The notes beneath the pieces were generated by a model. The model was not told the DNA's origin and did not search any database. It was given only the letters and a program-made list of their open reading frames with translations. This document shows, piece by piece, positions 1,316-54,927 of a DNA stretch of 55,282 bases (position 1 is the first letter of the stretch; each line of letters starts with the position of its first letter). The position numbers and the translations under genes are program-made. The stretch comes from a virus. Taxonomy: Duplodnaviria; Caudoviricetes. Where the stretch lies: positions 1 to 55,282 of the IMG/VR virus record IMGVR_UViG_3300008120_000334; one strand, 5' to 3'.

Positions 1316-3394
1316 ATGACTCCTCAAATCTTACCAACAGAAACAAAAGAAACCTTAATCGCTGGTCAATACACTAAAAGCGAATGGTTGCAACTAACAC
1401 AAACTGAACGCCGCGAAATTAGCTATAATCGTTATTTGCAAAACGTTGCCAAGGCACCAAAAGTAAACTATGATAGCTTTATTTTGTCGGCACTGTACGA
1501 AATTATCTACTACATCTCAAACGGCTTATTTGAAGCGTTTAGCGTAGTAAAAGGCGATGTTACTGCAAACGTAACAATCAAAGATGAAAACGATTTTGTA
1601 GTTCAAATTCAAACACCTACACAGTACTTTCAAATTTGCGACGATAAGGACTTATTTTTTACCAAGTTGAATGTTAAAACTTTCGAGAAATTGGTAGGCG
1701 CAAAAACGGCCAAATTGTTGAAAGCTGAACTACCTACCGAAACAGTTAGCACAACTAACGAAGTTTTTGAAATTAGCAAAAGTAGCTGCAAAAAATTGTC
1801 TGCCATTCAGGTTAAAACCTACTCAACACCAAAAGAGTACAAAGCGATTTACTCCAATACTTCACATCAGTATTGGACGATAAATATATCAAGTAACAAC
1901 GAAATATTTTTTAAGCCTGTCAATGCCGTCGATTTTAAAATAAATCTTGAATACTTCGCAGGTTTTGAGTTTTTTTATTTTGAATCACGTGATTTTGTAA
2001 CCGTAACCGAAAAAACTACTGGAATGGTGATAGTGAAAAACTACAAAAATGAGTCTATGAATGAGAAATTATTCAAAATATCAGAAAATCAAAAACCATT
2101 TGCCGAAATTATAGCAAACAGCACAAAAAAACAACCATTCACAATTGAACCAAACGAAAGTATTGAATCAATCAACCAAAAAAGAATAGCACAAAATGAG
2201 ATTTATGTTTTTGGCACTACTCCAGAAGTTGAGCCGATAACCGAAACACAGCCCGAAACCAACGAAGAAAACGAAGTAGTAGAAAACGAAATTGAATCAG
2301 AAACTAACCAAGAACCACAAAACCAAACCGAAACCATGACAATTCAACCAACACAACCGCAAAAAGGACAAAGAGTAACAAGAAACGGAGAAAACGGCAC
2401 GATTGTTTCTGTCGAAAAAAACAGAGTTCAAGTAAATTTTGATGGCGGTTTTGCTTCGCTATTAAGATACGACGAATTTGAACTTTTGCAACCAACACAA
2501 CCGCAAATCAACGAAGCAAGCATTTTAGAGGCTAAAATCAAAAAAGCTGAAAAATTAGTACAAGTACTTGCTAATATTAAAAACCCATTAACCCACGCAA
2601 GAACTGACCGTTACTACTATGTTTTAAGAATCTACCAGTCATTAAAAGCAAAATTAAACGACCTGCGTAGTGCTTTACAACCGCAAACCCTAACAGTAGG
2701 TCAAGCTATCCAGTGCGACGGGTATAGATTAGTTGTAACAGCCGTTAAACAGGCTAAAAACGAAGTTGAGCCATCACAGGACGAACCAGTAGAACAACCA
2801 GCACAAGAACCAATCAAACCAAAAAGCAATATGAATTTTTACCCAACAACCGAAAAAGTAACCGTAGAAAATTACCCTTACGGCTACACACAAAGAACAA
2901 CCGCTTTTTATTCAATAGAATTTAAAAAGGGCTTTGGCTTTCGCAAAGTATTCCAAACCGTCAACCCCAAAACAGGCCGTTTAAACAATCCAAAAAACGG
3001 TAGCTATCACACAGCCGTACTTCTTAACAAAAACGAAGAAAACGGACATATTGAAAGCTACGCTTTGAGTTTTAATGGCTCAAAAGAAATAAATAGCGGA
3101 TGCAAGTTTATGGCTATAAACTTCGACCTATTTACGCCTGAACAAATCAAGTACATCTACAAAGAGCTTTACACCTACATTAAAGCAGATTTTCAAGCCC
3201 TTTGTACTTATTGTGGCGCAAATCCAGAAACATCTATTTGTGAATACAAAGACGCTTTAAACAACGCTGCAAAAGGCTTTAATACAGGCGAAAATGTTTT
3301 CTCTGAAATTACTTTAGACATTCAAGCAATTGAAGCTTTAAAAGTTCCCGATTTTCAACCGTTCAAAATTACAAGATACGAACGAATAGCATAA
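1316..3394 (+). CDS. Large mosaic early protein (692 aa) with acidic linkers and an SH3/KOW-like module
   Basis: Long ORF; E/P/Q/T-rich linkers; KGQRVT..GTIVSVEKNRVQVNFDGG module flanked by QPTQPQ repeats. Confidence 0.75.
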   Translation: MTPQILPTETKETLIAGQYTKSEWLQLTQTERREISYNRYLQNVAKAPKVNYDSFILSALYEIIYYISNGLFEAFSVVKGDVTANVTIKDENDFVVQIQTPTQYFQICDDKDLFFTKLNVKTFEKLVGAKTAKLLKAELPTETVSTTNEVFEISKSSCKKLSAIQVKTYSTPKEYKAIYSNTSHQYWTINISSNNEIFFKPVNAVDFKINLEYFAGFEFFYFESRDFVTVTEKTTGMVIVKNYKNESMNEKLFKISENQKPFAEIIANSTKKQPFTIEPNESIESINQKRIAQNEIYVFGTTPEVEPITETQPETNEENEVVENEIESETNQEPQNQTETMTIQPTQPQKGQRVTRNGENGTIVSVEKNRVQVNFDGGFASLLRYDEFELLQPTQPQINEASILEAKIKKAEKLVQVLANIKNPLTHARTDRYYYVLRIYQSLKAKLNDLRSALQPQTLTVGQAIQCDGYRLVVTAVKQAKNEVEPSQDEPVEQPAQEPIKPKSNMNFYPTTEKVTVENYPYGYTQRTTAFYSIEFKKGFGFRKVFQTVNPKTGRLNNPKNGSYHTAVLLNKNEENGHIESYALSFNGSKEINSGCKFMAINFDLFTPEQIKYIYKELYTYIKADFQALCTYCGANPETSICEYKDALNNAAKGFNTGENVFSEITLDIQAIEALKVPDFQPFKITRYERIA

Positions 3395-14827: not shown

Positions 14828-15068
14828 ACAGCCTTGAAGTTTTAGTTTAACCTCTACCCCCTTCACTCTTGCGCAAAACAGGAGCAAAAGTATTTTGATA
14901 AAGGGTTTATTGAAAAACATCTTTCCCCCTGCGTTTGCAGGGGGCAAGGGTGAAAGGGTTTAGAAGTAGTTAAAAGAGGAACGTTGAGTATAAGTAAGTT
15001 AGTAGGGTAGGATTCACTCCCTACTACTTAAATTTTTCACCGAAAACAACTTTTAAAATCATAAAACT

Positions 15069-16639: not shown

Positions 16640-16852
16640 ATGGCAATACAAATCAAAAACAAAGCGGCACTTGCGCATAGGCTTGACCAGCAAACCTATA
16701 AAGGCGAGATTAGGAAAGACCCAGATTATTACATTACCTGCGTGGTGATGGACGAAAGAAAACCTTTTACAATCACTTTTAACCCTGTGCTTCTTGATAA
16801 GAAGATTGAGAAGTACGGTGATAGGTTGATTTTACCGAATGTAACCAAATGA
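16640..16852 (+). CDS. Hypothetical protein
   Basis: ORF in the operon. Confidence 0.6.
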   Translation: MAIQIKNKAALAHRLDQQTYKGEIRKDPDYYITCVVMDERKPFTITFNPVLLDKKIEKYGDRLILPNVTK

Positions 16853-16887
16853 GCGCAAACCCCAAAAAACTAACCGCCACGTTCAGG

Positions 16888-16917
16888 ATAATGCCTTGAG
16901 CGGCTTTGTAAAACTCA
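16888..16917 (+). repeat. 30-bp leader element, copy 1
   Basis: ATAATGCCTTGAGCGGCTTTGTAAAACTCA, identical to 49748-49777. Confidence 0.9.
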
Positions 16918-16925
16918 TAATTAAA

Positions 16926-17117
16926 ATGCTTAAAAAATTAGAAACATTAAAAGCAGAACTTGAGAAGATGTATGCAGTTGAACTTCTTGAGTATTACGAC
17001 AAAAATCATTTGTCTGGCGATAATAAAACCAGAAGTGAAACAAGACAAGAACAACTGCAATACTCAATTCGATTAATTAACGAAATAAATGAAACAGCTC
17101 AGAAAGTTGTAAACTAA
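16926..17117 (+). CDS. Hypothetical helical protein (start ATG 16926)
   Basis: ATG lies 8 nt after the 30-bp element, the same spacing as at copy 2. Confidence 0.65.
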   Translation: MLKKLETLKAELEKMYAVELLEYYDKNHLSGDNKTRSETRQEQLQYSIRLINEINETAQKVVN

Positions 17118-17166
17118 TTTTTGTGGCTCGTAGGATGCTCGGTGTTAGGTGTAGTGGAATCGTATT

Positions 17167-17289
17167 TAATTTGCGATTGCCGATGGCGGGGACTTAGAAC
17201 CAAAAACGTTCGGCTTAACAACAAAATTTAATAAGATGTCAGAAATATTAACAACAACCGAAACCCCCGCTATTGGCAATGTGCTGTTA
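17167..17289. repeat. attC-like site 1 (degenerate left core, TAAT)
   Basis: ATTGCCGATGGCGGGG / CCCCGCTATTGGCAAT arms; GTTA at 17286. Confidence 0.7.
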
Positions 17290-17577
17290 TGCGATGTTTA
17301 TCCTAATTGGCTATACATTGAGCTGATTGGAAATAAGTTGCTAATGCACATTTTGAAAGAATACGGCACATTGAATAAAGAAGATTACGAAAGAGTATAT
17401 AAGAGTTATGTTCTTCCATACTTTACAACATGGGACAATTTCAGTTGCTGTATGAATGGAGATGTTCAATACAGCCCCGTTGTCTTGGCTTGGTATGCAG
17501 AAAAAATAGGAGTTAAGCCAACTTATCCTTTAAGAGTAATGAGGCGGGTTGCTTGGTCGCTACGAAATATCGCATAA
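17236..17577 (+). CDS. Cassette 1 hypothetical protein
   Basis: Starts inside site 1; stop is the TAA of the next TAAC. Confidence 0.7.
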   Translation: MSEILTTTETPAIGNVLLCDVYPNWLYIELIGNKLLMHILKEYGTLNKEDYERVYKSYVLPYFTTWDNFSCCMNGDVQYSPVVLAWYAEKIGVKPTYPLRVMRRVAWSLRNIA

Positions 17578-17700
17578 CGATAGGTATTTGCGATGGTTGG
17601 ATATTTGAAAATATAAAGATGAATAACTTGATACAGACTGATTTATTTACTACTGCTGATGTGCCAACGTCAAGCCCAACTATTGCAAATACCCATGTTA
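17575..17700. repeat. attC-like site 2
   Basis: TAAC..GGTATTTGCGATGGTTGG / CCAACTATTGCAAATACC..GTTA. Confidence 0.85.
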
Positions 17701-18296
17701 GCTGTAGTTGTGGGCAATCGGGGAAATATAAAACAATAGTAATAGACCCACCGTGGAAGTATGGCGTTTGGGGTAAAAGAAATGAAATAACATCTTCCTA
17801 TAAAAAGTTTAAAGTAAATATCGAAACCCCATTGCCATACCCTTATATGACGCTGGATGAAATAAAAGCATTGCCTATAAAGGATTTGGCTGATGAAAAT
17901 TGCGAATTATATGTATGGACTACGCAAAAATATTTGCCTGTAACTTTTGAACTTATAGACCATTGGGGGTTTAAATATTGTACAACGTTAAGCTGGTGTA
18001 AAAAGCCAAGAGGTACGGGTCAAGGTGGTGTTTATTGCCCGACTACTGAATTTATTGTACATGGAAGAATAGGTAATATGCCAAAAGTTAAAAGGATTGA
18101 TAGTACATGGTTTGAGGTAAAAAGACCGCATAATAGCCACAGTACAAAACCTGAATTTTTCCAAGATATGATTGAGACAGTTTCAGATGCTCCACGACTT
18201 GAAATGTTTGCAAGGCGTGAACGTGAAGGGTGGGACGTTTTCGGTAACGAGGTGTCAAACTCTATAAAATTAAACGCTGGTAACAATTACAGCTAA
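17619..18296 (+). CDS. Cassette 2: MT-A70-family adenine methyltransferase (likely start ATG 17619)
   Basis: YKTIVIDPPW, LYVWTT, WGFKY, HSTKP, RLEMFAR, GWDVFGNE. Confidence 0.92.
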   Translation: MNNLIQTDLFTTADVPTSSPTIANTHVSCSCGQSGKYKTIVIDPPWKYGVWGKRNEITSSYKKFKVNIETPLPYPYMTLDEIKALPIKDLADENCELYVWTTQKYLPVTFELIDHWGFKYCTTLSWCKKPRGTGQGGVYCPTTEFIVHGRIGNMPKVKRIDSTWFEVKRPHNSHSTKPEFFQDMIETVSDAPRLEMFARREREGWDVFGNEVSNSIKLNAGNNYS

Positions 18297-18417
18297 CGGT
18301 TTGCAGGTATATTTAGTGCCGAATTTGAAAAACAAAATTATATGACAACACAAAACTTGATTGAAAAACTAAACTCCGATTATACACGATGCTCGGCATT
18401 GAATATACCTGCTGTTA
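18294..18417. repeat. attC-like site 3
   Basis: TAAC..GCAGGTATATTTAGTGCCGA / TCGGCATTGAATATACCTGC..GTTA. Confidence 0.85.
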
Positions 18418-18584
18418 GCAGCCGTTTATTCTATCCGATTTATGAAAGTGTAATTGGAGATGAACCGCACCTTAAAGAAGGTGAATTTATTGAAGCCATA
18501 GGTGATGACTTTATGGCGAGGATATTTGGAGTTGGCAAGTTTAGGGATAAAGCCGAAAAGTTCTTTGTTTTAAATGGCTGCTAA
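18342..18584 (+). CDS. Cassette 3 hypothetical protein
   Basis: Starts inside site 3; stop in the next TAAC. Confidence 0.65.
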   Translation: MTTQNLIEKLNSDYTRCSALNIPAVSSRLFYPIYESVIGDEPHLKEGEFIEAIGDDFMARIFGVGKFRDKAEKFFVLNGC

Positions 18585-18706
18585 CGTTAAAACGCTTGGC
18601 GAAGAAGCGGACTTTGAAGCACAAACTTTCAGTTTAGCACAAATGCCAATAGAAAGCACGAATGTTGAATTTAGCACTAAACCCGCTTTTTGCCAAGCGT
18701 GTGTTA
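18582..18706. repeat. attC-like site 4
   Basis: TAAC..ACGCTTGGCGAAGAAGCGG / CCGCTTTTTGCCAAGCGT..GTTA. Confidence 0.85.
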
Positions 18707-18751
18707 GCACCAGTACTTTTTTAATTAGTAACAATTTAAAACAATAATAAA

Positions 18752-19000
18752 ATGCAAGAATTTAATTTAGAACATCAGTATCAACTTTATCTACAAAGAA
18801 TGGCTTTGTCAGAAAGCACAATGCACCCACAACAAAAAATCCAACTACGCCAAACTTTTTTTGGTGCAAGTGGTCAAATGCTAATTCTTTTAAGAGACGA
18901 ATTATCAAAACTTGAAGAAGAAAAAGCAATGGAAACTTTACAAGATTTAATTAACCAAGTAGGCAATTTCTTTTTAGCCGAAACAAACAAAATGAATTAA
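18752..19000 (+). CDS. Cassette 4 hypothetical protein A
   Basis: ORF with A-rich leader. Confidence 0.7.
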   Translation: MQEFNLEHQYQLYLQRMALSESTMHPQQKIQLRQTFFGASGQMLILLRDELSKLEEEKAMETLQDLINQVGNFFLAETNKMN

Positions 19001-19001
19001 T

Positions 19002-19259
19002 ATGACACCAAAGCAATTTAAAGAAGCAAATGTAACTTTTGCAAAAGACCAACCCGAATATCAGCCATTACCTGCTTTTAGAAGTGATAGCCCACAAGGT
19101 GAAGTAATTACTTGCTGGAACTTATCATTCAAAGAACGATTAAGGATTTTGTTTAAAGGCGAAATTTGGCTTTGTCTCTTAACATTCAATAAACCATTAA
19201 CACCTACTTTTATAACCACTCAAAAATCAGAGGTATTGTCTGACGGTAGCGGTTCGTAG
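19002..19259 (+). CDS. Cassette 4 hypothetical protein B
   Basis: DQPEYQPLPA...ITCW.LSFKERL.IL..G.IWL phage-type small protein; stop overlaps the cassette end. Confidence 0.75.
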   Translation: MTPKQFKEANVTFAKDQPEYQPLPAFRSDSPQGEVITCWNLSFKERLRILFKGEIWLCLLTFNKPLTPTFITTQKSEVLSDGSGS

Positions 19260-19268
19260 TATTGGTGC

Positions 19269-19393
19269 TAACGTTCGAGTATTGGCGAAGAAGCGGACTT
19301 ATACCATTAAAGTTGATACGAAGCACCAATGTTGATGCTACTACAAATGTTCATACGAAGCACTAAAACCGCTTTTTTGTCAATACTTTGTTA
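19269..19393. repeat. attC-like site 5
   Basis: TAAC..AGTATTGGCGAAGAAGCGG / CCGCTTTTTTGTCAATACT..GTTA. Confidence 0.85.
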
Positions 19394-19472
19394 TGCGTTC
19401 GCCTTTTTTTCTGTTGATTTTCAGTTAGTTAGAAACTAATTTAAAAATAAATGAAAAATACTTTGAAAAAAG

Positions 19473-19503
19473 TTTGCAGTTATCAAAATAGAACCTATAT
19501 TTG
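19473..19503 (+). promoter_or_regulatory. Cassette-internal promoter (cassette 5)
   Basis: TTTG 19473-19476 and TATATTTG 19496-19503. Confidence 0.65.
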
Positions 19504-19533
19504 TACTCAGATAACAAATAAAAAATAAACAAA

Positions 19534-19710
19534 ATGACAACGATAATTTTTAAAAACGAAAAGAAAGCAAAAGTTTACGAAGTTAGAGCAGCAAAACCAT
19601 TTCATATTTATTCTGCTGGCGAGTTAATCAAAAGAGTAAAAACTGACAAAATTGAAAACCTAAACGAAAACTACGCAACTGATGAAATCACAGTTACAGA
19701 AATTAAATAA
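19534..19710 (+). CDS. Cassette 5 hypothetical 58-aa protein (not in ORF track)
   Basis: ATG 19534 after the promoter, TAA 19708-19710. Confidence 0.6.
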   Translation: MTTIIFKNEKKAKVYEVRAAKPFHIYSAGELIKRVKTDKIENLNENYATDEITVTEIK

Positions 19711-19894
19711 TCAACTCCAAAAAATCGAAACAGAGCTTTCTAAATGTAGAGGCTCTGTTTTAGAGGATGGATGGCAAACACAGCGTTATGCTAAAAAGAT
19801 GCGTAAATGGGATTATTACGCAATAGAAAAAATGAAAATTTTACAACAAATAGAAGATTATGAAAATAAAATTTGTATCAATGAGGAAGTATAA
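19682..19894 (+). CDS. Cassette 5 coiled-coil hypothetical protein
   Basis: ORF overlapping its neighbours in the operon. Confidence 0.6.
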   Translation: MKSQLQKLNNQLQKIETELSKCRGSVLEDGWQTQRYAKKMRKWDYYAIEKMKILQQIEDYENKICINEEV

Positions 19895-20102
19895 AATGTG
19901 TATAGGTTGGAAATATCGCCTAAAAAACTTTTTTACTATTGAGAAATATTGGTCTGGCAAAATAATTCAATTCAGAATTTTATGTGAATATGGTTTTGAT
20001 ATTGATTTGCGGGATGGTGGTTTTAAATTAACCGATTTACTTAATGAGAAAGAAAAAAAGCGTTTTTATTTAGGTATGTGGTTAAGGAAAAATCGGAACT
20101 AA
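19860..20102 (+). CDS. Cassette 5 hypothetical protein (start uncertain)
   Basis: TAATG-coupled to the next gene. Confidence 0.55.
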   Translation: MKIKFVSMRKYKMCIGWKYRLKNFFTIEKYWSGKIIQFRILCEYGFDIDLRDGGFKLTDLLNEKEKKRFYLGMWLRKNRN

Positions 20103-20269
20103 TGAAAAAGAAAAAAGAAAATAGAGGAGGCAAACGCCCTCTCTCTGGTCGTAAAAAAGCGGACCACGAAACTAAAACTATTGCATTTCGTGTTCGTGTC
20201 GAATTTGTCGAACCGATTAAAAAGATGGTAAAAGATTATGTTTCTGAGCGTCTGCAAGGTGACGCATAA
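20102..20269 (+). CDS. Cassette 5 small DNA-binding protein (RGGKRxxSGRK hook plus RHH-like segment)
   Basis: RGGKRPLSGRKK...TKTIAFRV; stop in TAAC. Confidence 0.7.
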   Translation: MKKKKENRGGKRPLSGRKKADHETKTIAFRVRVEFVEPIKKMVKDYVSERLQGDA

Positions 20270-20392
20270 CGGTTTGCAGCTATATTTAGTTGCGGACTTA
20301 GAAGCACAAAACTTGAATTATTCACAAAATTAAATTAGAAAATATGAACTTGAATGAACCACAAAAACCGCAATTGAATATAGGTGCTGTTA
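20267..20392. repeat. attC-like site 6
   Basis: TAAC..GCAGCTATATTTAGTTGCGG / CCGCAATTGAATATAGGTGC..GTTA. Confidence 0.85.
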
Positions 20393-20544
20393 GCGGTAGT
20401 GCCACTCCGAACTTTTTAAAGGTTGCCGTTGATGAACTGCTAACCTACAGAACACCGAAAAAGATAATTGATTACATAGAAGCTGAAAAGATGAAATCAA
20501 TAATAGGGAACCCACCGTTTGATGTTTTTGGGCATTACCGCTAA
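20344..20544 (+). CDS. Cassette 6 hypothetical protein
   Basis: Starts inside site 6; stop in the next TAAC. Confidence 0.6.
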   Translation: MNLNEPQKPQLNIGAVSGSATPNFLKVAVDELLTYRTPKKIIDYIEAEKMKSIIGNPPFDVFGHYR

Positions 20545-20668
20545 CGGTTCAGGGCTTTGCGAAGGCAGGGCTAAATAGCACAAAAGTTTAAATTAATTAC
20601 AAATGTCAAATAGAAATACAAAAGTTCAAAATCAGCACCAAAGCCCTGCTTTTGCAAAGCCCTTGTTA
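20542..20668. repeat. attC-like site 7
   Basis: TAAC..AGGGCTTTGCGAAGGCAGGGCT / AGCCCTGCTTTTGCAAAGCCCT..GTTA. Confidence 0.88.
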
Positions 20669-21100
20669 CCTGCCGTTTTTTCTATTAGCAGTAAGGTTTG
20701 TCCAATATGTAAAACAGAAAAAGACTTGTCAAATTTTGGTAAATACTTTTCTAAAGAACGCCAAAAATACAGAGTTCAAAACTATTGCAAAAGTTGTGAA
20801 AAATCAGAAAAGAAAAGGCGTTCAGCAGAATATTACGAAGCTAATAAAGAAGCAAGAAAACAATATCAAAAAGAACACAGGGCAAACCCAAACAACAAAG
20901 AAAAGTTAAAAGCAGTATCGCAAAAATTCAAAATAAAATATCGTGAGGAATTGCAAGACTGCTATGTTAGAGATAGGCTGACACAAGATAATAAAATACC
21001 AAATTATGTTTCAAGGGAATTGCCTGAAATAGTAGAAGCGAAAAGATTACAAATAAAAATTAAACGTAAAATAAAATCATTAAACAATGGCAAAAAATAA
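20603..21100 (+). CDS. Cassette 7 basic Zn-ribbon protein
   Basis: CPICKTEK..F...YCKSC; starts inside site 7. Confidence 0.7.
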   Translation: MSNRNTKVQNQHQSPAFAKPLLPAVFSISSKVCPICKTEKDLSNFGKYFSKERQKYRVQNYCKSCEKSEKKRRSAEYYEANKEARKQYQKEHRANPNNKEKLKAVSQKFKIKYREELQDCYVRDRLTQDNKIPNYVSRELPEIVEAKRLQIKIKRKIKSLNNGKK

Positions 21101-21356
21101 ATTATCAGACTTAAACGACCATCTTTTTATGGCATTAGAAAGATTAAATGACGAGGAATTGACAACCGAACAAATTGAATCTGAAAGTAAAAGAGCAGAA
21201 GCAATTATAGGTGTTGCAAATCAAATTATAGGAACTGCTAAAATTACACTTGACGCTATGAAATTAGTTTCAAATGGAAATTTAGACACAACTGAATTAC
21301 CTGAAAATTTTGGATTTAAACGACTGGTTTCGGATTCTACGCAAAATGGCAGGTAA
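21087..21356 (+). CDS. Cassette 7 helical phage protein
   Basis: KNKLSDLNDHLFMALERLNDE...RAEAI; stop in TAAC. Confidence 0.75.
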   Translation: MAKNKLSDLNDHLFMALERLNDEELTTEQIESESKRAEAIIGVANQIIGTAKITLDAMKLVSNGNLDTTELPENFGFKRLVSDSTQNGR

Positions 21357-21477
21357 CGTTGAAGCATTGGCGAAGGCAGGGAATAGTAGCACAACTGCCG
21401 AACCAAGTACAAAAGTTAAATAGTGCTACCATTGTTGAAAGTAGAACGTCTGCCCTGCTTTTGCCAATGCAATGTTA
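21354..21477. repeat. attC-like site 8
   Basis: TAAC..GCATTGGCGAAGGCAGGG / CCCTGCTTTTGCCAATGC..GTTA. Confidence 0.88.
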
Positions 21478-21498
21478 TAGGCAGCCTAATTTTAGGAT

Positions 21499-21903
21499 AT
21501 GGAATTTCAAATTATAATGGCTCACGGTGCTATGGGTGCTGATGCAAGCGACACAATGTTAGACACTTTTCTTCGTCAGTTTTCCCAAAAGCACCAAGAA
21601 GAAGGCGAATGGGCTGAAAAATATGGAACTGATTTAGAAACTGAAAAAGTAATGATGAAACGTTATTGCTGGTGCGAAAAAGAAGTTTGTCCATACTGCT
21701 TTGATTTAGAAGAAGAAAAGGTAACACAAGAATTGAAAGAAAAGTATGGAATGGAAGATGATAGAACAGCACCGAACTTTTGGTATAAGCCATTAGATTT
21801 TAAAGTGTGGTGGTATAAATACATTGGTCGTTCTGTCGAGGTTAATAAGCAATTGTCTGATGATGATTTTAAAAAGATGGTTGATGATTGTATGTCGTCA
21901 TAG
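21499..21903 (+). CDS. Cassette 8 Cys-containing hypothetical protein
   Basis: YCWCEKEVCPYC...PNFWYKP...WYKYIGRS; stop overlaps the cassette end. Confidence 0.75.
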   Translation: MEFQIIMAHGAMGADASDTMLDTFLRQFSQKHQEEGEWAEKYGTDLETEKVMMKRYCWCEKEVCPYCFDLEEEKVTQELKEKYGMEDDRTAPNFWYKPLDFKVWWYKYIGRSVEVNKQLSDDDFKKMVDDCMSS

Positions 21904-21911
21904 GTTGCCTA

Positions 21912-22036
21912 TAACGTACAGGTGTTTAAGATGAAGTGGACTTTGAAAAACGTCAGCTCGTTTACTTACTGATGTTAAATAGGATTCTAAAGGTGCAATT
22001 AATTCCGCCCACCACTTTATATTAAACACCATGTTG
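21912..22036. repeat. attC-like site 9
   Basis: TAAC..GGTGTTTAAGATGAAGTGG / CCACTTTATATTAAACACC..GTTG. Confidence 0.8.
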
Positions 22037-22136
22037 TGTGCTGCTGTTTTTATGTCTGTCAAAACCTATATATTGCCAATTTTTAGTTATACTTGTTATC
22101 AAATCAATAAAGTCTTAAACTTAAAACAAAAGAAAC

Positions 22137-22688
22137 ATGAAGGCATTAGACGAGAAGTTATTATATCTCGCATCTGAAAATACGTTGGTCAATTTAAAAG
22201 CCGATGCTACGGAGTTGTTAAAAAGTTATCACGAAACAGAAACAATAATTACAAACAAATCAACGTCTTTGTTGCAGTTTTTATTCCCTGTCTTTGTTGG
22301 TATTTTTGGCTATATTTTAGTTGAAATACAAACTAAAAGCAACCCGAAACTATTTTGGTTTGCTTGTATTGAAGAAATTGTGATTTTCTTGTCATGTTAT
22401 TATTTGTTTGAGTTACTTTATTTAAAGAAAGTCGCTCTAAGCGGGGTGAAACCTTCAAATATGTTACATGATGATATTGTCAAAAACGACGAAAATGGAA
22501 ATACTTTGCAGTATTTAAGATTACGTGTTTTTGGGTTACAAAATGCAATAACCGCTTGTGAAGCAAGTCACGATAAAAGAAAAACAAACTTCAAAAATGC
22601 TTTAAACATTTTAATGATAGGCACTTCTGTTGTTGTCCTTATTTTTTCGTTAGTCCTGATTGGTCAAGGCCTCTTTCTTCATAAGTAG
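22137..22688 (+). CDS. Cassette 9 three-TM membrane protein
   Basis: Two N-half hydrophobic helices and one C-terminal TM. Confidence 0.75.
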   Translation: MKALDEKLLYLASENTLVNLKADATELLKSYHETETIITNKSTSLLQFLFPVFVGIFGYILVEIQTKSNPKLFWFACIEEIVIFLSCYYLFELLYLKKVALSGVKPSNMLHDDIVKNDENGNTLQYLRLRVFGLQNAITACEASHDKRKTNFKNALNILMIGTSVVVLIFSLVLIGQGLFLHK

Positions 22689-22800
22689 TCGTCTCTCTCA
22701 TGGGTTGTCTAACAGGTTGTTGAGCGGGAGTAACAGTTTGTTGTTGTTGGCTTTGTTGTCCTTGCTCTTGGCTGTTATTGTTGTCGTTATTGTTGGTCAT
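22639..22800 (-). CDS. Cassette 9 convergent 53-aa N/Q-rich peptide (not in ORF track)
   Basis: MTNNNDNNNSQEQGQQSQQQQTVTPAQQPVRQPMRETTTYEERGLDQSGLTKK*. Confidence 0.55.
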   Translation of the reverse strand: MTNNNDNNNSQEQGQQSQQQQTVTPAQQPVRQPMRETTTYEERGLDQSGLTKK

Positions 22801-22857
22801 ATTTTTCTATTATTTAAATATCTAAATCTTACGGATGTGTTTTTTTACAGTTGCACA

Positions 22858-22982
22858 CAACGTTTTGCATATTGGAGCAGTAGGGGATTTGGAACACGAA
22901 AGTTTCTATACCCACTACACTTCATTAGATGCAATACCGTTCAATTTACCACTTAAACCCCTATTGCTCTAATATGCTGTTA
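22858..22982. repeat. attC-like site 10
   Basis: CAAC..GCATATTGGAGCAGTAGGGG / CCCCTATTGCTCTAATATGC..GTTA. Confidence 0.85.
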
Positions 22983-23075
22983 TGCTCTCGTTGCGGATTT
23001 TTAGCAGTAAACTTCAATCGGAGCAATGTTTTTTGTTCTTTTTTGTAGGTGGTAAAAAATATTTTTGATAAATAG

Positions 23076-23106
23076 TTTGTAAATACAAAATAAATACTTA
23101 CCTTTG
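23076..23106 (+). promoter_or_regulatory. Cassette-internal promoter (cassette 10)
   Basis: TTTG 23076-23079 and TACCTTTG 23099-23106. Confidence 0.65.
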
Positions 23107-23148
23107 AAGTGTTGTTAGCAATGAAGCTACAATCTAAAATTAAAAACA

Positions 23149-23346
23149 ATGGAAAAGTTAATCACAAATGCAAAAAGTCAATTTGAGAAATTCGGTCAAG
23201 TTAGAATCACTATTTATCCTAATCGTAGTGTAAATGATAGCTACGATATAGTTGAGAAGACAATGGATTCAGCTATTGAATCAATATCACATTTATACCA
23301 ATCGGTAACAGACGACCTTAGTGTTTCACACGCAAATGCAATGTAA
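23149..23346 (+). CDS. Cassette 10 hypothetical protein
   Basis: First ORF after the promoter. Confidence 0.65.
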   Translation: MEKLITNAKSQFEKFGQVRITIYPNRSVNDSYDIVEKTMDSAIESISHLYQSVTDDLSVSHANAM

Positions 23347-23510
23347 TGAGCAACACGAAAAAAGTAACGATAAGCCTTACTCCTGAACAACAGGATAAGG
23401 CTCGTTCTTTATCAAAAGATTTATTTGGTAAAGAAAATATATCTGGACTAATCGGATTTTTGATTGAGCGTTGGGAAAAAGAACAAAAAACTTCCACAAA
23501 TGTCAAATAG
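23346..23510 (+). CDS. Cassette 10 ribbon-helix-helix-like 54-aa protein (not in ORF track)
   Basis: MSNTKKVTISLTPEQQDKARSLSKDLFGKENISGLIGFLIE; TAATG coupling. Confidence 0.65.
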   Translation: MSNTKKVTISLTPEQQDKARSLSKDLFGKENISGLIGFLIERWEKEQKTSTNVK

Positions 23511-23534
23511 AAGCGGTCACGTAGCAATGGAGCA

Positions 23535-23557
23535 TAACGAGTTTATTTGCGAAACTC
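23535..23557. repeat. Terminal half-site of the array (attI-like candidate)
   Basis: TAAC followed only by GAGTTT-N7-AAACTC; no long hairpin and no GTT partner. Confidence 0.5.
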
Positions 23558-23583
23558 TACCCCCGTCAACTACTTAATAATCA

Positions 23584-23808
23584 ATGAAAATACAGGTTAC
23601 ATACTACGCAAAATGGCAGATAAAAGATGCTACTTGGTATAAGTGGACTACCTGTAAAAAGTTGATAAATTGCAAAACAGGGCGTGAGATTAAAAAGACC
23701 ACAAAGGGCGCACAGGCGGGGTATTATATTGAAGGAGAGTTTGTAAAAATTTCCGACCTCAAAAATAGAGTAGAACTAATACCTTTTAAGGAGAAATTGC
23801 CATTTTAA
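23584..23808 (+). CDS. Hypothetical protein
   Basis: ORF following the array. Confidence 0.65.
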   Translation: MKIQVTYYAKWQIKDATWYKWTTCKKLINCKTGREIKKTTKGAQAGYYIEGEFVKISDLKNRVELIPFKEKLPF

Positions 23809-23819
23809 AATCAACCCCT

Positions 23820-24164
23820 ATGAACTGGAAAGAAATAAACGAGAAGTACCCGAAAGCGTTTTTGGAGTGGGTGAAGAATCAGAACGAGTCGGAGATAAGC
23901 AACATCCATTACTTTCTCGCTGATAACGCCTGCTTAGTCAATAATGGCCGTATTACTTTTGATAGTAGCGACCTTATTCACTTGCCTTACTACTTTGATA
24001 CGTTGGGGATTGAAATAGAATCGTCAAAGTACAGTTGTCGGGTAACTGACAGAACATTACAAAATAAGTATTTTCTTGGCTATAAAGATGGCCGCCTCTC
24101 CGCCACAATAGCAGGGGCTGAGAAAGCATTTGAGATTCGGGATGCGCAATTAAATAACAACTAA
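23820..24164 (+). CDS. Hypothetical protein
   Basis: ORF in the operon. Confidence 0.65.
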   Translation: MNWKEINEKYPKAFLEWVKNQNESEISNIHYFLADNACLVNNGRITFDSSDLIHLPYYFDTLGIEIESSKYSCRVTDRTLQNKYFLGYKDGRLSATIAGAEKAFEIRDAQLNNN

Positions 24165-49747: not shown

Positions 49748-49777
49748 ATAATGCCTTGAGCGGCTTTGTAAAACTCA
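49748..49777 (+). repeat. 30-bp leader element, copy 2
   Basis: Identical to 16888-16917. Confidence 0.9.
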
Positions 49778-49785
49778 ATTTGATT

Positions 49786-50124
49786 ATGGTTGAAAACCAA
49801 AATTTTGGACAGGCAATTGAAGCCTTAAAAGAAGGCAAGAAAGTTGCAAGACAAGGATGGAATGGTAAAGGGATGTTTATCTTTGAAAGACCTGCCGATG
49901 AATTAGAAGTAGGCTTTATTATTGAAAAAGTAAAGTCATTGCCACAATCGGTAAAGGACTTTTTTAAGGCAAAAGATGCAAAGGAAACTCCAAGCGAACA
50001 AGGATTAGCCAAAGTGAAATTTGGAAACTACTTGTGTATGTATACTGCCGATGGGTCTATCGTAAATGGCTGGCTTGCAAGTCAGACAGATATACTCTCA
50101 AACGACTGGTGTATTCTTGACTAA
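49786..50124 (+). CDS. DUF2829 / Tad2-like anti-defence sponge family protein (start ATG 49786)
   Basis: [27 protein letters not shown]...[14 protein letters not shown] family signature. Confidence 0.85.
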
Positions 50125-52173: not shown

Positions 52174-54927
52174 CTACCAAACCTCAACCGTAGGCTCTGA
52201 TTTTAAGTTGTAAGGGGCTAACACCCAACAAGTACGGGCAAACAGTCCGCTCATTATACCGTCTATCTTGGTGTTCTTGCTTTGCTTGGTAAGTATTAGG
52301 TTGTTGCCCTTTACCAAACAAAGAACGTTTGATGCCATCCATCCAAGTACAGGGTCGTTTTGGTGAAACAAAACCTTCTTTTTAATATCCGTCTCAAAGT
52401 CTCGAATAAACGGAGTTAAGAACCTGGGGGATTGGCTGATTTTAAACATGACAATTCCCTCATTCTCTAAATCGGTAAACATATTGCCTGTATAGGCTTG
52501 GTCAGCAGCAATACTTTGCAGATTTACAACCTTGGTACGCTCAACGATAAAGTCCTTTGCTTGGTTTAGGTCAATGCAGTTTCCTTCGCACACAAACAAA
52601 ATACCATTCTTAACCCACTCCCTAACACTTGCAAGCCCTAACTTTTCAAGTTCTTTGTACTTTTCTTCGTGAGTCCATGCCCATTGCTTCCACGATAACC
52701 CACCTTCTACGGGGTAAACTTCGGAGTAGCTTAGAAGGTCGTTTGTTACGGCCACGTCAAGGCCGCCATAAGCCACGGGGTATTCATCGAGTGGTATTAT
52801 TGTAGGATTTTCCCAAACGTCGGCTGTAATCCAAGTAACCGCGCTATCCGTCCAAACGTTAAGGTGTTTTGTTTTGAAGTCAACCTCTTTACTACCCGAT
52901 ACCTTTGCCTCTTCAAACTCCGATAACAAAGACGCTTTTGTAACTGACACCCCGTAATTAGGATTTGCTTTCTCCCAAACTTTCGGGTCTTGCCAGTCGT
53001 CGCCTTCGTCTATTGAATAGATAACGCCAAATAACCCTTCGTTTGATATTGTACCATCAAGTACTTTCTTTACAATGCTGTTTCTATATTCGTAGCAAGG
53101 GCCGTTTCTATCGCTTCCTGCGGTTGTGATAATAAAAAACAAAGGCTGCTTTCTTGCGGCCATACCTGAGCGCAAAGAGTTCTTTACATCGTCATTTTTG
53201 TGAACGTGGTATTCGTCAAAAATTACACAGTGGGCGTTTTTCCCTTCGGTATTGTTGGCATCGTGGCTAACGGCCTCAAACTTTGATCTGTCTCCAAATT
53301 TAAAATGGTGTACCCTAAACTGTGCGTGAGTTTTAATATAAGCCGATTCTTCCGCCAGACGTTTTAACATTGAGGCCGATTCGTCATAGCATATTTTTGC
53401 TTGGTCGCGGGTAAAAGCAGCCGCGTAAACCTCCGCCCCTAACTCTCCATCGGCCACCAAACAGCAATTTCCAACCGCCGCGCCCAAGGAGGTATTGTGA
53501 GTAGGTATAAATGACTTTGTTACCAAAAATAGGCTTCTTGGGGAATCTACTTGAATACACCTAACTGGAACTGATTCTACATCGTTTATCTCGACAATTT
53601 GACGGTAATTTGAACGCTTACTTTCTCCACTTCCATTTTTTAGCCTATCTTTTTTTCTTTGTAGCTTAAAGCATGTATTTTCGGAGAAACACCAAAATTG
53701 AACTCTATATTTTAATCCCATCCTACGCCCTTCAAAATAACTATCTGCTATTTTAACACTTGGCTTTAATCCTAAGCTACGGCACAATTCCATAAAACCT
53801 TTACATAGCAATTCGGAAGTAGTAGTAAATTCGCATTGTCCAGCTTTTGAGCAATACCCATCGGTATCCATCAACCCTTTTAGCAACTCCCATCTATCCT
53901 CAATACTGGATTGAAGGTATAGGTCTGGAATATGTTTGTTGCCAAATAAGTTTAACTTTCTTAATCTCGCAGCAATAGAATTGTCTCTTTCTTTTTGCGA
54001 TTTTCCACAGGCTCCTAATGTGTAGTATCCGCAATTATTTCGCTTATCAATATTGGGTACGCCTAATGGAGTAATTGCTTTTATATGCTCTATTAATTCA
54101 ATATCAGCACCCCCAATAGTAACTCTGCCGCTTTCACTATCTCCATCACCAAGCCAAAAACCAAGAATATAAGGGTTTACAGGCAAGTCTTTTTTAGGGT
54201 ATTCTACTGCTTGACAATTCTTTATTCTATGATTGGCAACCAAATCTTTTTTTACCCCTTGTTCAAAATAAAGAGTTTCTTTTATTTTCTCAGTAGTAAA
54301 AACAATACGTTTGTCAAGGTTTGACCAGTCCTTCTTTTTCTTTCCCTTAAAATCTTTTCTACAATCCCTACCAGTTCTATACGGCTGTGTCTCCCACAGG
54401 TGTTCTGCATCAGCAATAACTTTTGTGCCGTCCGAAAACACCATTTCGTAGCATTTTCGATTGTACATTACATCGGTCGCAAATGTCACATGGCACACTT
54501 TTCCATTTTCATCAAAAAGAGCGTCACCCTCTTTTAATGACCCCATAGTTTTCCATCCATCTGGCGTTGGAATAGGAGTATCAAGAGCTAAAGCCTTCCC
54601 ATTTTTTTTGGGAATTTCTACATAAGCCTCTCTAAAACGCCTTGTTCCGTCTGCAATCCATCGCCAGCCAAAGATATTCCAGTAAATGAACTTTTGCCAC
54701 GGCTCAAGTATAAAACGCTTCTTTTCGCCCTTTGTGAGCCAAAGAGTCTCAGTAAAGGCTATTTTAATACTTGCGGCTTGTTCGTCGAAATAAAACCCTT
54801 TGGATTTGGCATTTATTTGGTCGTCAAGGTAGCGTTTACAAGCAAGTTTTACATCCATGCCAGCCGCTTTTTTACCTGTTAGCACGTCGTTTACATACTT
54901 GTCAACCTCTCTTTTGTAACTTTTCAT
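52174..54927 (-). CDS. terL: Terminase large subunit containing an intein
   Basis: LEPWQ.F, RRFREAYVEIPKKNGK/T Walker A, IFDEYH, ITTAG, KANPN, KIDG. Confidence 0.97.
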   Translation of the reverse strand: MKSYKREVDKYVNDVLTGKKAAGMDVKLACKRYLDDQINAKSKGFYFDEQAASIKIAFTETLWLTKGEKKRFILEPWQKFIYWNIFGWRWIADGTRRFREAYVEIPKKNGKALALDTPIPTPDGWKTMGSLKEGDALFDENGKVCHVTFATDVMYNRKCYEMVFSDGTKVIADAEHLWETQPYRTGRDCRKDFKGKKKKDWSNLDKRIVFTTEKIKETLYFEQGVKKDLVANHRIKNCQAVEYPKKDLPVNPYILGFWLGDGDSESGRVTIGGADIELIEHIKAITPLGVPNIDKRNNCGYYTLGACGKSQKERDNSIAARLRKLNLFGNKHIPDLYLQSSIEDRWELLKGLMDTDGYCSKAGQCEFTTTSELLCKGFMELCRSLGLKPSVKIADSYFEGRRMGLKYRVQFWCFSENTCFKLQRKKDRLKNGSGESKRSNYRQIVEINDVESVPVRCIQVDSPRSLFLVTKSFIPTHNTSLGAAVGNCCLVADGELGAEVYAAAFTRDQAKICYDESASMLKRLAEESAYIKTHAQFRVHHFKFGDRSKFEAVSHDANNTEGKNAHCVIFDEYHVHKNDDVKNSLRSGMAARKQPLFFIITTAGSDRNGPCYEYRNSIVKKVLDGTISNEGLFGVIYSIDEGDDWQDPKVWEKANPNYGVSVTKASLLSEFEEAKVSGSKEVDFKTKHLNVWTDSAVTWITADVWENPTIIPLDEYPVAYGGLDVAVTNDLLSYSEVYPVEGGLSWKQWAWTHEEKYKELEKLGLASVREWVKNGILFVCEGNCIDLNQAKDFIVERTKVVNLQSIAADQAYTGNMFTDLENEGIVMFKISQSPRFLTPFIRDFETDIKKKVLFHQNDPVLGWMASNVLCLVKGNNLILTKQSKNTKIDGIMSGLFARTCWVLAPYNLKSEPTVEVW
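53494..54594 (-). mobile_element. 367-aa intein with LAGLIDADG homing endonuclease (Ala1, class-3 signature)
   Basis: ALALDTPIPTPDGW...DAEHLW...LGFWLGDG...LLKGLMDTDG...PVRCIQVD...PTHN|T. Confidence 0.92.

Follow-up and report, generated by a model that had tools for sequence, protein, structure and literature searches.

Integron cassettes and their counterparts in phages

Integron cassettes are promoterless genes, and how such genes come to be translated after a move is a standing question. In T4-type phages, the PeSL (promoter-early stem-loop) cassettes are characterised by short stem-loops with a promoter. Regarding resistance cassettes, the available part of one source has attC overlapping the stop codon in most of them (PMC11511950), and the available sections of another describe ORF-11, ORF-17 and ORF-18 in the attI1 site of class 1 integrons as well as short ORFs inside attC; the attI1 ORFs encode coupling peptides of 11-18 aa, which end at or near the core and aid re-initiation (PMC8876359). 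As for phages, the accessible text of Qi et al. (2023) reports CALINs (clusters of attC sites lacking an integrase), i.e. integrase-less attC-type arrays, in phages of environmental bacteria, where they carry DNA methyltransferases, one example being a Polaribacter (Flavobacteriaceae) phage (PMC9892861). In that paper, the term 'start codon' does not occur and the two uses of 'overlap' concern primers; besides, two sites of the Polaribacter phage are tested there, and one of these, attC1, stands alone among six in lacking a verified IntI1 product (PMC9892861). Our literature search found no paper describing hairpin-borne start codons and leaders of such cassettes.

A ten-site cassette array in a complete phage record

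The window analysed here is a whole stretch of 55,282 nucleotides, i.e. a complete 55-kb phage record without a tyrosine recombinase gene, in which positions 17164-23545 (+) form an integron-like cassette array. The reading that we hold to be probable is that of an integron-like array in which the hairpin borne by a cassette carries the translation start and the leader of its first gene. The array consists of the following features (CM, covariance model).

17164..17292 (+): E0, first hairpin of the array; CM score of 77.6 bits; degenerate 5' core (TAAT); loop ATG at 17236
17236..17577 (+): ORF of 113 aa with its ATG in the E0 loop; terminated by the TAA within the E1 TAAC core
17572..17703 (+): E1 hairpin; CM score of 59.1 bits; loop ATG at 17619
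17619..18296 (+): MT-A70 DNA methyltransferase of 225 aa; 35-aa leader encoded by the hairpin; terminated by the TAA within the E2 TAAC
18291..18420 (+): E2 hairpin; CM score of 91.4 bits; loop ATG at 18342
18342..18584 (+): ORF of 80 aa, 24 leader codons and 56 further codons; its stop is the TAA of the E3 TAAC
18579..18709 (+): E3 hairpin; CM match; no long loop-start ORF
19266..19396 (+): E4 hairpin; CM match; four small ORFs (19534-20269) in its cassette
20264..20395 (+): E5 hairpin; CM score of 101.9 bits; loop ATG at 20344
20344..20544 (+): ORF of 66 aa, 15 leader codons and 51 further codons; its stop is the TAA of the E6 TAAC
20539..20671 (+): E6 hairpin; CM score of 122.9 bits; loop ATG at 20603
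20603..21100 (+): zinc-finger, endonuclease VII-like protein of 165 aa with a 20-aa leader; PHROG matches from residues 28-30
21351..21480 (+): E7 hairpin; CM match; ORF 21499-21903 begins 22 nt downstream
21909..22039 (+): E8 hairpin; CM match; 3' core GTTG, matched by CAAC at E9
22855..22985 (+): E9, last hairpin of the array; CM match; 5' core CAAC
23531..23545 (+): closing inverted repeat of the last cassette and array end; ends in TAAC, with no hairpin behind

The ten CM matches are AAC...GTT hairpins of ~130 nt, all ten on the + strand and within 5.8 kb, and 65 further matches in 100 related viral loci are likewise all on the + strand (65/65). The hairpins are no product of chance: those of the TAAC/GTTA type scoring at least 30 number six in the window vs. 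0-1 per shuffle in 20 shuffles. Over 48 aligned sites, 88% of the stem cells are paired, vs. 60% in shuffles and 38-48% with slid partners; the covariation score reaches 0.661 vs. 0.181 in shuffles (0.661 being attained by 0/500 of them) and 0.10-0.15 with slid partners, compensatory changes are found in 15/15 main-stem pairs, and the AAC and GTT columns of the 48 sites are invariant or nearly so. On the + strand, the arm mismatches of 109 distinct arm pairs comprise 195 G:T vs. 68 A:C, and the fold of this strand is the more stable one at 9/10 window sites, the window hairpins having -31 to -48 kcal/mol as RNA. Each cassette is further bounded by complementary ends, as the 11 nt after GTT and the 11 nt before the next AAC form a mean of 8.0/11 pairs (83 consecutive element pairs) vs. 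4.4/11 in 415 control pairs; the variant cores GTTG and CAAC also match each other, and the repeat at 23531..23545, read by eye, complements the flank behind E9. Six upstream ORFs take their stop codon from the TAA of the next 5' core.

Repeated ACAAA(A/T)GTT-like motifs occur in the hairpin loops, in which no consistent Bacteroidota -7 promoter motif was seen by eye. A tRNA scan of the window returned no match, and a BLAST search of the array against the phage collection matched one hairpin only, in Flavobacterium phages 6H and 2A (4 records). Another hairpin, at 14848-14972, looked member-like at first and was dropped, as the CM gives it no match at E <= 1.

As in integron attC sites and cassettes, these are imperfect AAC...GTT hairpins whose structure is conserved rather than their sequence, the two cassette ends are complementary, gain or loss takes place at the core, and a stop codon sits in the AAC core. 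Unlike in integrons, where the attC follows its gene and the folding (bottom) strand is non-coding, no integrase gene (intI) lies beside the phage array, a cassette read in the sense of its gene begins with the site, the hairpin travels with the downstream gene, and the folding strand is the coding strand, with a start codon in the loop and a translated arm. The ten-site array corresponds to a CALIN (at least two attC sites close together, no integrase nearby), an assignment which, like the attC-type call, rests on our own CM and not on IntegronFinder. In the Polaribacter phage P12002L, CM matches are weak (31-41 bits) and therefore do not link the site family to the published IntI1 assays; by eye, attC1 in the supplementary primer table resembles the family. 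With PeSL cassettes, the array shares repeated stem-loop linkers between small accessory phage genes that are shuffled there; it differs by sites of ~130 nt with AAC/GTT cores, self-complementary cassette ends and translated arms.

Start codons and leaders encoded in the hairpins

The initial annotation had placed the ATGs at 17236, 17619, 18342, 20344 and 20603 in hairpin loops, with frames reading through the right arm. Each of them lies inside a CM hairpin (E0, E1, E2, E5 and E6, respectively), with the GTT core 45-78 nt further downstream, and the 3' arm is read in frame, which gives ORFs of 113, 225, 80, 66 and 165 aa with 15 to 26 hairpin-derived leader codons (8-29 residues in relatives); the leader peptides it quoted agree with the ORF translations. 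The five other window elements (E3, E4, E7, E8 and E9) have no long loop start, and their first long ORFs begin 22-164 nt past the hairpin. Among 111 distinct viral elements, a loop ATG with a frame open for at least 25 codons past GTT is present in 59 vs. 8/111 in the reverse-strand control, an excess that chance does not account for, and the claim that the hairpins supply start codons and N-terminal leaders is thus well founded, the start of translation being one that we infer; the 20 runs listed for the stretch include 0 RNA runs. With no loop start in 52/111 viral elements and in 5/10 window elements, the loop start is an option of the site and not a fixed property.

Upstream of the loop ATGs, A occupies position -12 in 47/59 cases, -13 in 38, -3 in 36 and -6 in 34; these are the positions where A raises translation in F. 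johnsoniae according to the available text of PMC6847099, and on sequence grounds the loop ATGs share the A-rich surroundings of start sites in Flavobacterium. Around the ATG, the unpaired probability is 0.67, vs. 0.09 in the arm. Of note, the stable hairpin could hinder initiation rather than help it. In the GenBank annotation of Flavobacterium phage 6H, three CDS starts (gp53, gp47 and gp48) fall inside such loops.

That unrelated proteins receive related leaders is apparent from the relatives, where the same leader is found on different proteins and the same protein with different leaders; leaders are alike because the hairpin arms are homologous. For instance, an intact homologue of E0 (L147) has the same leader with a different protein attached, L009 13642-13774, at 85% identity to the E6 interior, stands ahead of a different protein, and the endonuclease VII-like body bears a different leader in L145. 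Homologues with no hairpin in front lack the leader and start at their own ATG, which stands beside the KYKTIV motif in the MT-A70 homologues (L082 and L083) and 6 codons before the CPIC motif in the endonuclease VII-like one (L146). The leader also works as a search tag, as had been suggested, leader-only matches having been recovered in searches.

The mobile unit and its exchange points

In metagenome variants, one or two whole cassettes are missing and the deletions run from an AAC core to the next AAC core. Contigs of runs X4 and X5 skip from 17574 to 18294 and from 20266 to 21354, with otherwise the same letters on both sides; run X5 also skips from 21912 to 22859, i.e. the E8 cassette, and joints of runs X4 and X6 end at 23534-23536, at the closing repeat. 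Only 5 nt are common to the two sides of each skip joint, in the AAC core. Together with the self-complementary cassette ends, this loss at AAC cores substantiates the designation of the hairpins as exchange sites. At the joint 17574>18294, the E1 hairpin and the methyltransferase are gone together. As the cut that removes whole cassettes from the variants falls in the 5' AAC core, a mobile unit comprises the hairpin and the gene or genes after it; the start consequently belongs to the cassette and not to the preceding site.

This bears on the model, put forward in the initial annotation, in which a resident hairpin donates its start codon to any DNA captured behind it and new small genes arise there. 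Such a model would accommodate that the body of ORF 20344-20544 is found with three different leaders and its leader family on other bodies in six further loci, that the leader/body junction lies exactly at GTT in every case compared, and that similar downstream bodies have a different hairpin in 8/16 pairs (a similar one in the other 8/16, in a locus set biased toward hairpin-body linkage as L145-L164 were fetched with leader-plus-body queries, only three pairs with at least 80% similar interiors being free of this bias, namely L003/L005 twice and L003/window). We nonetheless regard it as unlikely: the natural deletions remove the hairpin with the gene after it, the hairpin interior is similar in 0/8 pairs with a similar upstream gene end, and at least two reading frames are commonly used. 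The E4 hairpin and downstream start region are 87% identical to L003 with a different upstream gene, the E9 interior shares 86.5% identity with L082 5636-5761 while the flanks of the two differ, and five different sequences follow the closing TAA(C) core of the ORF 18342-18584 gene in five contexts.

The small genes of cassettes 3 and 6 do add about 50 codons, as stated (56 after GTT in ORF 18342-18584 and 51 in ORF 20344-20544), but the proposal that they arose de novo fails: other viral contigs contain both of them, 72-96% identical and with pN/pS of 0.06-0.42. The former has seven related loci, six at 90-96% identity and one at 49%, and pN/pS of 0.06-0.12; for the latter, pN/pS is 0.16-0.42. 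Being conserved under purifying selection, neither is a new gene in this phage.

Coming back to hairpins that move with their downstream genes, the similar bodies with different hairpins require a second exchange point at GTT. The broader idea that almost any captured DNA in frame becomes a protein stands in part only: there is no universal frame (39 of the 59 loop starts read GTT as a codon and 16 read TTA, the other 4 being in the third frame), but as leaders and bodies are exchanged at GTT, some frame-dependent new fusions are possible.

Alternatives to a start within the loop

The loop ATGs might be incidental, with translation starting downstream and the hairpins acting only as exchange sites or RNA structures. 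The 52/111 elements without a loop start would fit, as would the bacterial arrays of the family, where a loop start occurs in only 22/106 elements and most frames, on inspection, are of low complexity and probably spurious; besides, ORF 17236-17577 has an alternative in-frame ATG 19 codons past the hairpin, so that its loop start is not forced. We give this reading little credence, however, as 4/5 window ORFs offer no alternative start codon. Behind E1, E2, E5 and E6, no in-frame start-like codon lies between the hairpin and the conserved protein; in ORF 17619-18296, where the Pfam MT-A70 match spans residues 37-211, the only ones are at 17619, 17628 and 17661, all within the hairpin. The same applies to two C5 methyltransferases (L005 and L009), whose motif I lies ~10 residues past GTT with no ATG between. 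Moreover, purifying selection acts on the bodies right from the codon that follows GTT, the A-rich context has its peak at -12, and the 59/111 loop starts exceed the reverse-strand control.

That the hairpins regulate at the RNA level (as terminators, processing sites or translational operators) instead of being recombination sites is more improbable still, their fold on the mRNA strand with G:U pairs and their repeated loop motifs being outweighed by the precise cassette loss between AAC cores, the own inverted repeat that boxes each cassette, the zero Rfam matches at gathering threshold over the whole window, and bacterial arrays whose genes lie on the other strand (33/43 cassettes), where the structure is kept though not mRNA-sense.

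A start borne by the cassette hairpin has a parallel in the attI1 ORFs as portrayed in the available part of PMC8876359, for there also the site carries a translation initiation region and the frame crosses the exchange point, the outcome being set by the DNA behind. Unlike these ORFs, the frame is here fused to the cassette protein (66-225 aa), in about half of the cassettes and on an attC-type site. No coupling ORF of the ORF-11 type was found, the only short frame being that from the E3 loop ATG, which stops at 18747, 4 nt ahead of the ATG at 18752.

Gene orientation, recombinases and a proposed mechanism

Viral cassettes have their genes on the folding strand in 40/76 cases, opposite to it in 1/76 and ambiguously in 35/76, whereas the bacterial arrays of the same site family keep the classical integron orientation, with genes opposite to the folding strand in 33/43 cassettes. 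This opposite orientation within one family offers a handle on which strand is exchanged.

As regards the enzyme, the complete 55,282-bp record contains no PF00589 match, and scans of 63 + 37 ORF entries with Pfam and PHROG revealed no recombinase in the window (the 692-aa ORF 1316-3394 remaining without assignment in these scans). Four other viral array records, one of which is rated 100% complete, were tested and yielded no tyrosine recombinase either. Phage 6H has one, far from its array. The longest 90 of 190 open frames of at least 170 aa neighbouring bacterial sites, taken from 80 loci, include two tyrosine recombinases at less than 2 kb from a site: that of L202 is Xer-like (118.6 bits for a cut-off of 220, and 83 bits against the integron-integrase model for a cut-off of 265), and that of L229 adjoins an IS91-type transposase. 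This is too little evidence to name either as the exchange enzyme, which would probably be a host Xer-like tyrosine recombinase.

In the mechanism that we propose, a cassette consists of an imperfect hairpin site of ~130 nt, then one to four genes, then an inverted repeat closing on TAA|C, and the folded substrate may be single-stranded DNA. The best-folding strand, which is the one with the G:T pairs, is the coding strand, so the mRNA of each cassette opens with a hairpin of its own. For about half of the cassettes, translation of the first gene would be initiated in the unpaired, A-rich loop; the ribosome would start at the loop ATG and read the 3' arm, the GTT core and the 5' inverted repeat of the cassette, and the leader sequence would thereby be dictated by the site. 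More tentatively, and as a possibility that we do not favour over its negation, phages may have taken over an integron-type cassette system from their Bacteroidota hosts, with the gene orientation inverted, which would make the site a portable translation start, with the folding strand as mRNA, the A-rich loop as ribosome entry and the arm as the first exon-like module of the protein, exchange at AAC (whole cassettes) and at GTT (leader against body) re-heading proteins and expressing start-less gene fragments. If true, this takeover would provide a route to new fusion genes in a phylum with no Shine-Dalgarno signal to carry along.

Concluding remarks

In these phages, starts will be misplaced by any gene caller or cassette finder for which attC sites are non-coding, and the leader peptides offer a means of locating such arrays. 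Phage methyltransferases and other counter-defence proteins would have N-termini that are dictated by the site and are not functional. More generally, the recombination site here appears to solve the problem of translation after a move, by providing a start signal that suits the ribosomes of Bacteroidota and by being itself incorporated into the protein.

The hairpin site family and its fold

Strong TAAC...GTTA hairpins numbered six in the scan of the window, against zero or one in each of 20 shuffles. A covariance model of the site family (R1), built from 48 aligned sites of the window and its relatives, recognises ten sites in the window (E0 to E9), which are themselves part of the training set, all on the plus strand from 17164 to 22985 and with nothing credible elsewhere; applied to 100 related viral loci, it returns 65 matches, all on the plus strand and many of them outside the training set, with none in the remaining 43 loci. 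In the 48-site alignment, compensatory changes occur at all 15 main-stem pairs, 88% of the stem cells are paired, compared with 60% in shuffles and 38-48% when the partners are slid, and covariation scores 0.661 (0.181 in shuffles, 0 of 500 shuffles reaching the observed value). A 125-nt TAAC...GTTA hairpin that encloses a GC hairpin, located at 14848-14972 between two ORFs upstream of the array, was rejected as a family member, being unrecognised by R1.

Regarding the strand that folds, stem mismatches on the plus strand amount to 195 G:T and 68 A:C (109 distinct arm pairs), G:U is the most frequent pair at one stem column (22 of 48 sites), and RNA folding gives the plus strand as the more stable one in nine of the ten window sites (means of -39.3 vs. 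-34.1 kcal/mol). From this G:T excess and this stability, it follows that the folding strand is the coding strand. Besides, the loops of E0-E9 (17164-22985) and of the aligned sites (A2) each contain two to four copies of a (C)ACAAA(A/T)GTT-like motif, and a GGA(C/T)TT(T/A)GAA-like box comes after the 5' arm. The site family, its bacterial copies included, reaches R1 scores of up to 124 bits, which suggests that the loop is kept for some reason besides translation.

Cassette boundaries

Between consecutive elements, the 11-nt flank after GTT pairs with the 11-nt flank ahead of the following AAC at 8.0 of 11 positions on average (mode 10; 83 consecutive element pairs), compared with 4.4 of 11 for mismatched flank pairs taken as control (n=415). 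The rare core variants also match, GTTG of E8 with CAAC of E9 and likewise in the viral locus L009. Every inter-hairpin segment is therefore boxed by its own inverted repeat, which is a likeness to integron cassettes. At E1, E2, E3, E5, E6 and E7, the upstream ORF stops at the TAA contained in the TAAC core. The array has a single minus-strand ORF (22639-22800), whose 53 aa are rich in N, Q and S; it overlaps the last part of ORF 22137-22688, which belongs to cassette 8.

Predicted start codons within the hairpin loops

As first annotated, five ATGs are located in hairpin loops, 45-78 nt upstream of GTT, and their frames cross the 3' arm:

17236, plus strand: loop ATG of E0; an alternative ATG 19 codons past the hairpin may also be the start
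17619, plus strand: loop ATG of E1, MT-A70 methyltransferase; in-frame start-like codons only at 17619, 17628 and 17661, all within the hairpin; MT-A70 domain from residue 37
18342, plus strand: loop ATG of E2, 80-aa ORF; next in-frame start-like codon 33 codons past GTT, of 56
20344, plus strand: loop ATG of E5, 66-aa ORF; next in-frame start-like codon 34 codons past GTT, of 51
20603, plus strand: loop ATG of E6, endonuclease VII-like protein of 165 aa; next in-frame start-like codon only after the conserved CPIC motif

The protein bodies encoded after GTT display pN/pS values of 0.06-0.12 (E2) and 0.16-0.42 (E5), which indicates purifying selection starting with the very first codon of the body; it follows that the sequence right behind the core is translated. 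Among 111 distinct viral elements, a loop ATG with a frame open for at least 25 codons past GTT is present in 59, vs. 8 on the reverse strand; GTT is read as a codon in 39 of these 59, TTA in 16 and the third frame in 4. Upstream of the same 59 ATGs, the counts of A are 47 for position -12, 41 for -11, 38 for -13, 36 for -3 and 34 for -6, G being nearly missing. According to a study on Flavobacterium johnsoniae (PMC6847099), the Shine-Dalgarno sequence is ignored in this bacterium, adenines at -3, -6, -12 and -13 increase translation and an open structure is favourable. The predicted unpaired probability is 0.67 around the loop ATG vs. 0.09 in the arm. Independently, the GenBank annotation of phage 6H, a Flavobacterium phage with seven of these sites, positions the starts of gp53, gp47 and gp48 within three such loops. 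Counting against generality, 52 of the 111 viral elements have no loop start, E3, E4, E7, E8 and E9 included.

E3 (18640-18755) is without a long ORF of this kind, but from an ATG in its loop a short frame crosses the 3' arm and ends with a stop codon at 18745-18747, leaving 4 nt to the start of ORF 18752-19000, an arrangement reminiscent of the attI1 coupling ORFs. In two other viral loci (L003 at 5671 and L005 at 4382), the hairpin-started ORF resembles a lipoprotein precursor, with a hydrophobic stretch and a Cys immediately past the GTT core; there, the signal peptide may be partly encoded by the site and its flank.

Natural cassette loss and the mobile unit

Public metagenome-run contigs carrying the phage (contigs, not reads) were aligned to 16800-24000. 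The joint 17574>18294, present in runs X4 and X5 with shorter sides of 158 and 255 nt and no other letters on either side, lacks the E1 hairpin together with the methyltransferase; two cassettes are missing at the joint 20266>21354 (X4 and X5 contigs) and one at 21912>22859 (X5 contig), X4 and X5 sharing year and habitat and possibly belonging to one campaign. A repeat-induced assembly error is unlikely since just 5 nt per joint, namely the AAC core with adjacent letters, are compatible with both sides. The E8/E9 joint opens with the T of E8 and not the C of E9, so the cut falls within AACGT. Weaker joints (X6, X4) end at 23534-23536, that is the closing TAAC of the array. As the deletions span from one 5' core to the next 5' core, the cassette consists of a hairpin and the genes after it.

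The comparison of relatives agrees with the deletions in pointing to a mobile unit made of the hairpin and its downstream genes. The hairpin interior is similar (at least 0.9) in 0 of 8 locus pairs with a similar upstream gene end and in 8 of 16 with a similar downstream gene body; L145-L164 were retrieved by leader-plus-body queries, which biases the set toward hairpin-body linkage, and the unbiased interior pairs of at least 80% similarity (two for L003/L005, one for L003/window) go in the same direction as the whole set. Across five contexts, the 80-aa cassette together with its hairpin has a different, unrelated sequence behind its closing TAA(C) core each time. The initial annotation had considered that the site supplies a start to whatever DNA it captures: the site would indeed double as translation start and leader, but the start belongs to the cassette, as indicated by the AAC-core deletions and these locus pairs.

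Leaders and bodies as modules

Matches between the methyltransferase and its 62 viral relatives all begin at residue 23 or beyond, mostly at 33-37. The two closest relatives, L082 (69% identity) and L083 (65%), lie within arrays, yet no hairpin directly precedes them, and each starts at an ATG of its own next to the KYKTIV motif. In L146, the endonuclease-like protein (52% identity) has no hairpin within 1.5 kb on either side and starts at an ATG of its own, 6 codons ahead of the CPIC motif. The leader, i.e. the hairpin-encoded N-terminal peptide, is thus absent from homologues that are not directly preceded by a hairpin.

The same body carries another leader in the endonuclease-like protein (L145 vs. 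the window) and in the C5 methyltransferases of L005 and L009, and the 66-aa body is found with three different leaders. The same leader precedes another body in E0 vs. L147, in E6 vs. L009 and in L004 (N6 methylase) vs. L005 (C5 methylase), and the E5 leader family occurs on other bodies in six further loci. In every case, the leader/body junction is at GTT. This pattern may partly arise from sites of the same type being simply alike, as in chromosomal integrons; the 66-aa body with its three leaders needs exchange or re-creation. GTT is a second breakpoint, which the AAC-core deletions do not explain.

The two short ORFs (80 and 66 aa), once viewed as candidate de novo genes, have counterparts in 7 and 10 further viral loci, with full-length matches at 72-96% identity in 6 and 3 of those loci and one more at 49%. 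Such recurrence, together with purifying selection, contradicts gene birth, and both are old genes that phages share.

Bacterial arrays, phage context and published systems

A degenerate pattern for one site subtype matched at least 125 bacterial genome stretches, nearly all from Bacteroidota, where about 10 were expected by chance, and R1 detected 139 sites in the 80 bacterial loci fetched, often several per locus and on one strand within each locus. Of 43 bacterial cassettes, 33 have their genes opposite the folding strand (same 5, ambiguous 5), whereas of 76 viral ones, 40 have them on that strand (opposite 1, ambiguous 35, these being multi-gene). The bacterial arrays thus exhibit the classical integron layout, with gene then site and a non-coding folding strand, and the phage arrays the inverse. 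In keeping with this layout, loop starts are rare in the bacterial loci (22 of 106), most such frames looking spurious by inspection. These Bacteroidota chromosomal arrays (L165-L244) contain many defence-type genes, including OLD-like ATPase/TOPRIM, GmrSD, DarT, SIR2-like, SMODS with 4TM effector, HEPN and HsdM/Eco57I methylases; these genes, too, are encoded opposite the strand that folds. Xer-like recombinases of the hosts were detected next to bacterial arrays.

The phage record, rated 100% complete (55,282 bp, the entire virus record), carries tailed-phage genes on the minus strand (terminase, portal, capsid, tape measure and endolysin) and replication and recombination genes on the plus strand; no tyrosine recombinase is encoded in these 55,282 bp. 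Its DNA relatives in the phage collection are restricted to Flavobacterium phages 6H and 2A, with a match confined to one hairpin. The 917-aa terminase large subunit (52174-54927, minus strand) shows LAGLIDADG/Hom_end homing-endonuclease matches at residues ~333-402, between terminase parts, and probably holds an intein. A 122-aa ORF (49756-50124) gives a hit, with E = 2.9e-23, to the Tad2-like Thoeris anti-defence domain.

Integrase-less attC clusters were reported in phages, including a Polaribacter phage with methyltransferases, with IntI1 activity on 5 of 6 sites, in an article whose accessible text does not mention start codons (Qi et al., 2023; PMC9892861). In class 1 integrons, ORF-11, ORF-17 and ORF-18 in attI1 as well as short attC ORFs assist translation of the next cassette, as stated in two sources (PMC8876359; PMC11511950). 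No description of cassette proteins starting inside an attC-type loop was found in the literature searched. The initial interpretation was wrong on two points, namely whose start the loop ATG is and gene birth; its core is right, in that the recombination site also acts as leader and as predicted translation start.
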